From a virus (lineage: Duplodnaviria; Heunggongvirae; Uroviricota; Caudoviricetes): 64,000 nt of DNA. How positions within the stretch are numbered: position 1 is the first letter of the stretch; each line of letters begins with the position of its first letter. Under the pieces are notes generated by a model. The model made no database searches and was not told where the DNA came from. It saw nothing but the letters and a program-made list of their open reading frames with translations. The translations under genes and the position numbers were made by a program. Location: IMG/VR virus record IMGVR_UViG_637000107_000010; one strand, given 5' to 3'. Below, in pieces: positions 9,973 to 11,462 of this stretch.

Positions 9973-10670
9973 CGCGATAACGGTCAAAAATTATGGCGCT
10001 GACACTTTTGTGCCACTGGAGATGACTGTACCTAAGTTCAGGGGAGAAGAACACGTCCGGTGGGATGGTCGGGCCANATTTAAAGGGCAGGTCATGGCTC
10101 CAGCCTGTACGCTGGCAATGGANGCTGCCTGGCGGGAAATTGATATGGGAACCACGCCACTCAGGGATTTACTGCCGGTCCAGAGAATAAATTCCTGTTA
10201 CGGTTACACCACTGTGATCTTGCAAGTGCAGGAAAGTAGGTCTACACGGTAACGCGAGTGCGTGTAACTTTTGATGTCATTCCCGTAGAAACACCGGACA
10301 AATTTTCGCTGACAGGTCATGCAGAAGGTATAAATCTGCAGATTATGGACAATTACGGATATCCGGCAAGAGCCGGAAAAAGCATGCCGCCTCTAATTCT
10401 CAGTGGAAGATGGACTTGATTATACTCATTGCATTGTCAGAAATAGTTATCCATTAAAGGCTGGCTATTCCAAACAGGATGTTGATTACAAAAATGTAAT
10501 CAACATGTAAGGTTTATACTCTTCAATATGCGTATAATTTTCCTTATTTTGTTGACTTTAAATAACAAGCTATGCACGAGGTAAAGTCNGATAAGTTTAT
10601 CTGGATGTAATATATATTATTTGTAGTGTTTATAACTTTATTTCATGATAACCAATAAAAGGAGTTTTTT

Positions 10671-11429
10671 ATGAGGAACATAATGGCAGGTTTTTTAATA
10701 TTCCTGTCTTCTGCTGCTTATGCTGATATCAATCTGTATGGTCCTGGTGGCCCGCATACAGCCTTGCTTGATGCAGCCAAACTTTATGCCGAAAAAACAG
10801 GTATTATAGTGAACGTTCATTACGGCCCACAGAACAAATGGAATGAAGATGCCAAAAAAAATGCAGATATCTTGTTTGGCGCATCAGAACAATCTGCTCT
10901 GGCTATCATTCGGGACCATAAAGACAGCTTCAGTGAAAAAGATATTCAGCCTCTTTATCTGCGAAAAAGTATTTTACTGGTAAAGAAAGGTAATCCTAAA
11001 AATATCCGGAGTATTGACGACCTGACCAGACCTGGGATTGGCGTAATTGTTAATGATGGTGGTGGTACCAGTAATACATCAGGCACTGGCGTCTGGGAAG
11101 ATATTGCCGGACGTAAAGGGAATATAGAAACTGTCGCCGCAATCCGAAAAAATATTATTTTATATGCGCCCAATAGCGGAACTGCACGTAAGGCTCTTGA
11201 GAATCAGCCTGGAGCAGATGTCTGGATAACCTGGGCTGACTGGGCAGCCAGTAATCCAGAAATTGGTGATGTCGTGGAAATAGCGCCAGACTACGTGATA
11301 TGGCGTGATATGAACATTACAGTACGTCAGGATGCAAATGATGAAACCCGTCGATTTGCAGAATGGCTACAAACCGATGAAGCGGCGCCTGCATTCAAAA
11401 AATATGGCTGGACCAGGAAAGGCACTTGA
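10671..11429 (+). CDS. Periplasmic substrate-binding protein (type 2 PBP fold, ModA/sulfate-binding-like), signal peptide; moron
   Basis: N-terminal signal peptide FLIFLSSAAYA; AT-rich 400-bp leader; RBS aaaggag; followed by a terminator; absent from P2. Confidence 0.7.
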   Translation: MRNIMAGFLIFLSSAAYADINLYGPGGPHTALLDAAKLYAEKTGIIVNVHYGPQNKWNEDAKKNADILFGASEQSALAIIRDHKDSFSEKDIQPLYLRKSILLVKKGNPKNIRSIDDLTRPGIGVIVNDGGGTSNTSGTGVWEDIAGRKGNIETVAAIRKNIILYAPNSGTARKALENQPGADVWITWADWAASNPEIGDVVEIAPDYVIWRDMNITVRQDANDETRRFAEWLQTDEAAPAFKKYGWTRKGT

Positions 11430-11431
11430 CA

Positions 11432-11462
11432 TCCTCGTCCTTCAGGACGTGGATTCTTTTTC
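11432..11462 (+). terminator. Rho-independent terminator downstream of the SBP gene
   Basis: Stem cgtcc/ggacg followed by a T-run. Confidence 0.4.

Follow-up and report, generated by a model that had tools for sequence, protein, structure and literature searches.

A solitary periplasmic binding-protein gene in a lambdoid prophage region identified as the virulence-associated gene paa/adfO

The window analysed here is a stretch of 64,000 nucleotides of DNA from a virus of the Caudoviricetes (IMG/VR record IMGVR_UViG_637000107_000010) that carries two paralogous lambdoid prophage regions, termed P1 and P2. In a first-pass annotation, positions 10260-11462 of P1 were described as holding a lone periplasmic substrate-binding protein. 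As judged from sequence identity, this lone binding protein is the product of paa (adfO; z2053 in strain EDL933), a long-known virulence-associated prophage gene, so that the finding is one of known biology and the first-pass annotation missed a well-known identity. The gene is a virulence-associated moron of an OI-57/CP-933O-type lambdoid prophage, located between the replication genes and hok/sok ('ckf'). We are highly confident of the overall account of gene identity, cassette anatomy and proposed mechanism that follows, which rests mainly on identity and anatomy, and far less confident of any single mechanism.

The paa/adfO open reading frame (ORF) occupies positions 10671..11429 on the plus strand, including the stop codon. 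It begins with ATG and encodes 252 amino acids, and the sequence AGGAG is found at 10660-10664, six nucleotides 5′ of the start codon. The encoded protein shares 100% identity with a cluster of 616 members that bears the name 'AcfC family adhesin Paa'. At the DNA level, the locus is 99.8% identical to PPompW prophages, where the coding sequence is annotated Paa/AdfO, and 99.9% identical to E. coli O157:H7 chromosomes where the gene is annotated paa and resides beside hokD. With the paa/adfO locus of OI-57/CP-933O-type prophages in E. coli O157:H7 and O145:H28 the identity is 99.8-99.9%, and P1 overall is 99.8% identical to O157:H7 prophages. Positions 9990-11700 match O157:H7 strain PV15-279 exactly, except at three ambiguous bases (Ns). 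Three is also the number of ambiguous bases in the P1-specific block described below; none falls within the paa ORF, which is intact in identical genomes.

Positions 10260-11462 are present in 623 of 5426 complete E. coli genomes (582 chromosomal places and 52 plasmid places), and the RefSeq label for these matches is 'paa: AcfC family adhesin Paa'. According to published accounts, adfO (paa, z2053) and the adjacent hok-family gene ckf (z2054) are located in OI-57, which is part of the ompW-inserted prophage CP-933O (PMC9144400, PMC9729726, PMC8565820). In veterinary diagnostics, paa is a routine virulence marker for the polymerase chain reaction (PMC12883757). The correct label for the window is that of the OI-57 virulence marker paa/adfO beside ckf (hok), and the combination of paa/adfO with ckf is used to type high-risk Shiga-toxin-producing E. 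coli.

Pairwise ratios of nonsynonymous to synonymous substitution rates (dN/dS) among paa alleles and orthologues are 0.04-0.13, and an alignment of 19 family members, with 52-92% identity to Paa, has 64 invariant columns. Because of these low ratios and invariant columns, the sequences indicate that the gene is under strong purifying selection and functional, with its conserved core retained.

The prediction of a 252-amino-acid secreted protein with a periplasmic-binding-protein (PBP) fold agrees with what we observed. The Pfam family SBP_bac_11 matches Paa residues 20-247 (E = 5.5e-34), which covers the whole mature protein of 234 amino acids and 25.8 kDa. Ahead of this, the N-terminus MRNIMAGFLIFLSSAAYA, continuing into DINLYGPGG, has the form of a Sec signal peptide, with MRN, a hydrophobic core, and AYA followed by D. 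Because the protein contains no cysteine at all, it has no lipobox and is not a lipoprotein. These features point to export of Paa to the periplasm via Sec.

Searching the PDB by sequence returned Campylobacter jejuni PEB3 and Vibrio cholerae AcfC over the full mature length, with E values of about 1e-81. An AlphaFold2 model of Paa, built on a 19-sequence alignment, has a mean predicted local distance difference test (pLDDT) score of 89.9 and superposes on both proteins, in agreement with the fold that had been proposed. When the model was compared with the PDB by Foldseek, the template modelling (TM) scores, given as query-normalized/target-normalized pairs, were 0.90/0.97 for AcfC (4jb7, a complex with D-aspartate; 52% identity) and 0.88/0.96 for PEB3 (3fj7, a complex with phospholactate). 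ModA and the sulfate-binding, iron-binding and sugar-phosphate-binding proteins followed with TM scores of 0.55-0.73 and identities of 10-18%. By sequence and by model, Paa is assigned to the class II PBP fold and to the AcfC/PEB3/Paa family. The invariant motifs YGPGGPH, SNTSGTGVWED, PNSG and W-TW-DW are all present in the Paa of the window and, by analogy, would line the ligand pocket.

The comparison with ModA and other substrate-binding families that the first-pass annotation had suggested showed ModA and the sulfate-binding proteins to be relatives of fold (TM about 0.7, identity about 15%) that are not members of the same family. Membership of the ModA, Sbp or CysP families was rejected, with scores against the NCBIfam models of 22.6 bits for Sbp (cut-off 288), 19 bits for CysP (cut-off 308) and 18.3 bits for ModA TIGR01256 (cut-off 62.5). 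As these cut-offs were missed so widely, ModA and Sbp are best regarded as superfamily relatives of Paa.

The gene had been described as lacking a permease or ATPase partner, and no permease or ATPase gene was found near paa in the window. We extended this comparison to 12 contexts, comprising the window and 11 other loci, with relatives from Edwardsiella, Enterobacter, Francisella, Campylobacter, V. cholerae, Aeromonas, a Vibrionaceae genome, a Salmonella plasmid and two E. coli plasmids. In none of the 12 does the paa-family gene form an operon with a permease and an ATPase. Several of the relatives' loci have long empty intergenic regions on both sides of the gene, and the V. cholerae relative is located within the toxin-coregulated pilus (TCP)/ToxT island. 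At the Enterobacter locus, an ATP-binding cassette (ABC) system is found 688 bp upstream, together with its own binding protein. The missing linked transporter is a family trait across the sampled AcfC/PEB3/Paa contexts.

The surroundings of the gene in the window also correspond to the earlier description, which placed it between the replication region and hok, in P1 only. Replication genes flank the paa block on the left, together with a DUF1627 gene and a small ORF, and hok/sok flanks it on the right, with an Rfam match to sok at 11618-11767 (104 bits) and a Pfam HOK_GEF match for 11765-11920. When P1 was compared with P2 by blastn, homology ended at P1 position 9979 (P2 37318) and resumed at P1 position 11576 (P2 38953). 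The interval between these points in P1 stands in place of the 3′ end of a helix-turn-helix-type gene and four small genes in P2 (37319-38952). The features of the P1-specific block are as follows.

9980..11575: P1-specific block of 1596 bp, delimited by blastn against P2; G+C content 43.6%, against about 51.5% in the flanks
9980..~10470, plus strand: pixH/papH-like fimbrial subunit fragment, a pseudogene that lacks both ends and is interrupted by one frameshift and by internal stops
~10478-11461: paa unit proper, common to prophage and plasmid alleles
10479..10506: perfect 12+12 inverted repeat ATGTTGATTACA-aaaa-TGTAATCAACAT (z = -4.4)
10507..10670, plus strand: AT-rich leader that travels with paa, about 26% G+C, including the AGGAG sequence
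10533..10538, plus strand: candidate -10 element with the sequence TATAAT, conserved across three lineages of E. coli paa alleles
10671..10724, plus strand: predicted Sec signal peptide, the first 18 codons of paa, assigned at the sequence level; the PEB3 crystal construct aligns from residue 19
11431..11461, plus strand: terminator-like hairpin and T-run TTCTTTTT, with the hairpin at 11431-11454, its core at 11436-11449 and the T-run extending to 11461
11462..11575: 114-bp tail of the prophage cassette, with a 24-bp perfect palindrome CCGATATGGGAATTCCCATATCGG at 11549-11572

Three features of the block are those of a moron: its position between conserved phage genes, its absence from the sister prophage P2, and its deviant G+C content. 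On its left side, P1 9727-9972 corresponds to the 5′ two-thirds of a 134-amino-acid helix-turn-helix-type gene (phrog_323-like) that is intact in P2 at 37036-37440; the helix-turn-helix part of the P1 gene has been removed by the paa block. The four different small genes that had been noted in the P2 slot are present there and are ordinary phage genes (phrog_1001, phrog_1372, DUF4014 and DUF551), with ORFs as follows.

37437-37664: ORF in the P2 slot
37657-37968: ORF in the P2 slot
38096-38314: ORF in the P2 slot, DUF4014
38316-38873: ORF in the P2 slot, DUF551

The extent of the paa unit can be read from plasmid alleles of the gene, which are 86-89% identical and whose matches are confined to the stretch between about 10477-10485 and 11453-11461. 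The shared prophage/plasmid block starts exactly at the inverted repeat at 10479-10506 in these alignments, and the hairpin and T-run at 11431-11461 mark its 3′ edge. Within these limits, paa is a self-contained mobile unit consisting of an AT-rich leader, a strong ribosome binding site, the ORF, and a hairpin with a T-run. The first-pass annotation had given the gene a 400-bp AT-rich leader extending over 10260-10670 (34% G+C). About 190 bp of this (10478-10670, 25.5% G+C) is a real conserved leader, and about 210 bp (10260-10470) is the 3′ part of the fimbrial pseudogene. The Rfam search of the leader revealed no known RNA family.

The inverted repeat that opens the unit lies about 27 nucleotides 5′ of the conserved TATAAT, for which a good -35 partner was lacking. 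It could be an operator, a recombination site or a terminator hairpin. Comparison by eye with the consensus sites of CRP, Fur, ArgR and LacI-family regulators gave no convincing match. At the other end of the cassette, the 114-bp tail was found in 580 genomes, at 593 chromosomal places and one plasmid place, a chromosomal number close to that of paa itself (582). The palindrome within this tail has an EcoRI sequence, GAATTC, in its centre and lies 4 nucleotides before the homology between P1 and P2 resumes; it may mark a recombination joint.

The left part of the block, at 9980..10470, is labelled by RefSeq as 'fimbrial protein; frameshifted; internal stop', and the breaks are visible in a three-frame translation. 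When the frames were stitched together, the conceptual protein was 65% identical to PixH of plasmid pEB2 from enterotoxigenic E. coli (ETEC) strain B7A (tblastn against plasmids). The match ends 14 codons short of the PixH stop codon, and the signal-peptide end is also missing from the fragment. An intact PixH/PapH-type minor subunit of a chaperone-usher system was rejected, as the frame is broken and both ends are gone. Neither the upstream ORF pieces nor the stitched conceptual protein gave a Pfam match. On pEB2, PixH belongs to a pixH-pixC-papD-pixJ operon, and the closest intact relatives of the fragment are on ETEC plasmids. Because this pixH-like fragment is fused to the left side of the cassette, a plasmid-type adhesin region is the most likely source of the paa cassette.

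A separate observation comes from plasmid NZ_CP171884.1, where a frameshifted paa-like allele that is 86% identical is located at 6198-6946, with a fimbrial chaperone fragment and a PapB/FocB-type regulator within a few kb. This locus is another link of paa-type genes to decayed fimbrial regions.

Three further observations concern the neighbourhood rather than paa itself. Just 3′ of the P1 hok gene, positions 11929-12010 give a sub-threshold Rfam match to the Hfq-binding small RNA isrK (25 bits against a gathering threshold of 50, E = 0.015), which together with sok is the only Rfam match near the block. Just 3′ of the P2 hok gene, positions 39440-39784 encode a signal-peptide-bearing BOF protein of 114 amino acids, with a YgiW-type oligonucleotide/oligosaccharide-binding fold (Pfam BOF, E = 1.9e-33). 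No BOF counterpart turned up at the equivalent position of P1, and the P2 gene has the appearance of another moron for an exported protein in this neighbourhood. Finally, the whole window contains 93 ambiguous bases (for example at 18022-18058, 45763-45808 and 49090-49154), many of them in stretches duplicated between P1 and P2. Their clustering suggests that the consensus or assembly was unable to fully separate the two paralogous prophages.

With the identity of the gene established, we considered how its product might act. In the mechanism that we propose, Paa would be exported by Sec into the periplasm and would close there on a small anionic ligand, which would be a phospho-, sulfo- or carboxy-compound held by the loop S134-N-T-S-G-T-G140, invariant in the family, together with the other invariant motifs. 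The ligand-closed protein would then promote adherence and colonization indirectly. This effect might pass through a chromosomally encoded membrane partner, such as a chemoreceptor or a secretion or regulatory pathway, or it might involve the binding of sulfated host glycans once some Paa reaches the surface. In short, Paa would bind a small anionic ligand in the periplasm and alter adherence indirectly.

Several published observations surround this proposal. An O157:H7 adfO mutant adheres poorly to HeLa cells and releases less of several secreted proteins, and Paa has been implicated in colonization of the pig ileum (PMC8565820, PMC8281228). The homologue AcfC is periplasmic and binds sulfated glycosaminoglycans and mucin in an enzyme-linked immunosorbent assay; it has no effect on cell adhesion, but affects chemotaxis towards mucin and intestinal distribution (PMC5976639). 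PEB3 is listed in a review as binding phosphoenolpyruvate and 3-phosphoglycerate (PMC8835900). Of the three roles that the first-pass annotation had offered for a lone binding protein, signalling gains some support from the chemotaxis reported for the homologue AcfC, and receptor masking found no support. Nutrient scavenging is weakened, with no linked transporter in the contexts surveyed.

A more specific form of the proposal, which we advance only tentatively and as a possibility rather than a probability, is that Paa serves as an orphan periplasmic sensor and not as an adhesin. Its invariant pocket would bind a phospho- or sulfo-metabolite derived from the host or from mucus, and the closed form would signal via a core E. 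coli membrane partner (a chemoreceptor, a two-component sensor or a secretion pathway), with adherence as an indirect consequence. The 28-bp palindrome would then be the operator of a regulator that times expression of the phage-borne sensor.

A number of points weigh against the proposed mechanism and the account of its expression signals. We know of no published ligand for Paa itself. A two-hexamer sigma-70 scan detected no promoter in the conserved paa leader, so that the promoter is a consensus-level guess; the sole plus-strand hit in the region, at 10397-10426, is in the fimbrial fragment, outside the conserved unit. The terminator that had been called downstream of paa persists as the hairpin and T-run at 11431-11461, but the hairpin is modest (-13.6 kcal/mol, z = -2.2) and would make a weak terminator, and the counts of promoter-like and terminator-like sites in the region equal the expectation from shuffled sequence. 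In the classical literature Paa is placed on the surface as an adhesin, which conflicts with the periplasmic location reported for AcfC and PEB3 (PMC5976639). The doubt concerns the mechanism and not which gene this is.

Taken in its classical sense, the name implies that Paa is a genuine surface adhesin that, after export, arrives at the outside of the cell and itself binds a receptor on the host cell. We consider this rather doubtful. RefSeq names the protein an 'adhesin', and Batisson, in 2003, reportedly obtained surface labelling with anti-Paa antibody. According to reviews, paa/adfO mutants lose adherence and immunization is partly protective (PMC8281228, PMC8565820). However, the protein has a plain Sec signal and no lipobox, and shows no beta-barrel, autotransporter or usher-dependent features. 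It is instead a complete small-molecule-binding PBP fold, with an invariant pocket common to free-living and non-enteric bacteria, and its homologue AcfC fractionated to the periplasm and left cell adhesion unaffected (PMC5976639).

A second alternative, which appears unlikely, is that Paa is a transport component, passing a phospho- or sulfo-metabolite to a transporter whose genes lie at another chromosomal site and thereby giving the lysogen a nutritional advantage in the gut. The fold superfamily that Paa shares with ModA, Sbp and AfuA would suit such a role, as would the phospholactate in PEB3 structures and the listing of PEB3 with 3-phosphoglycerate and phosphoenolpyruvate (PMC8835900). 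The absence of a linked permease or ATPase from all 12 contexts speaks against it, as do scores of 18-23 bits against curated ModA, Sbp and CysP models whose cut-offs are 62-308. Both the direct-adhesin role and the transport role fit the sequence less well than the indirect mechanism, because Paa has no anchoring feature and no transporter.

It is highly improbable that paa is a functionless relic of an ABC-transporter operon that the phage picked up from a chromosome by illegitimate recombination: the left side of the block does carry a captured gene remnant, so that recombinational capture has happened, but this pixH-like fimbrial fragment is the sole captured remnant beside paa and includes no transporter gene, the ORF is intact, 100% conserved in the 616-member cluster and maintained at the dN/dS values given above, and transporter partners are missing from family members everywhere sampled. 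We rejected a captured transporter-operon fragment, which the first-pass annotation had named as the outcome that would overturn its view, because no operonic permease or ATPase was present in the window or at the 11 other loci.

Our additions to what is known of paa are modest. They comprise a composite cassette in which a pixH-like fimbrial fragment adjoins a paa unit, common to prophages and plasmids, that runs from a candidate promoter to a terminator-like hairpin, a conserved perfect palindrome at the start of this unit, and the lack of a linked transporter in any family context sampled. At the level of sequence, these results support the view that a ligand-sensing function is concealed behind the name 'adhesin', while the finding as a whole stays within known biology.

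Comparison with known systems places the window as follows. The reference Paa/AdfO (porcine attaching-effacing associated protein; z2053, OI-57, CP-933O, EDL933) is an identical protein in the same place, beside hok ('ckf') in an ompW-type lambdoid prophage, and nothing of substance differs between it and the window. AcfC of V. cholerae (4jb7) resembles Paa in its 52% identity, its TM scores of 0.90/0.97, its invariant motifs, its signal peptide and its lack of a transporter partner. Unlike paa, acfC resides not in a prophage but in the TCP pathogenicity island, where it follows acfB, a gene described as chemoreceptor-related, in the same operon, and the reported role of AcfC is in chemotaxis towards mucin and not in cell adhesion (PMC5976639).

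PEB3 of C. jejuni (2hxw, 3fj7 and 3fir) is likewise similar to Paa, with 52-53% identity, TM scores of 0.87-0.88/0.95-0.96 and the same anion-binding loop, but its gene is chromosomal, in contrast to prophage-borne paa. PEB3 is N-glycosylated at a DFNVS sequon; Paa has DSFSE at the aligned position, and E. coli is not known to have a Pgl glycosylation system. The ModA, Sbp and CysP proteins share with Paa the class II PBP fold and the Pfam family SBP_bac_11, and differ from it in that they are only about 11-18% identical, with a TM score of about 0.7, and in that Paa has no partner permease or ATPase genes. Examples of lambdoid prophage morons are bor and lom of phage lambda. The paa block resembles these in its insertion between conserved phage genes, its deviant G+C content and its own apparent start and stop signals, of which the promoter is a candidate, and differs from them in that it replaced resident genes and brought a fimbrial gene fragment along.

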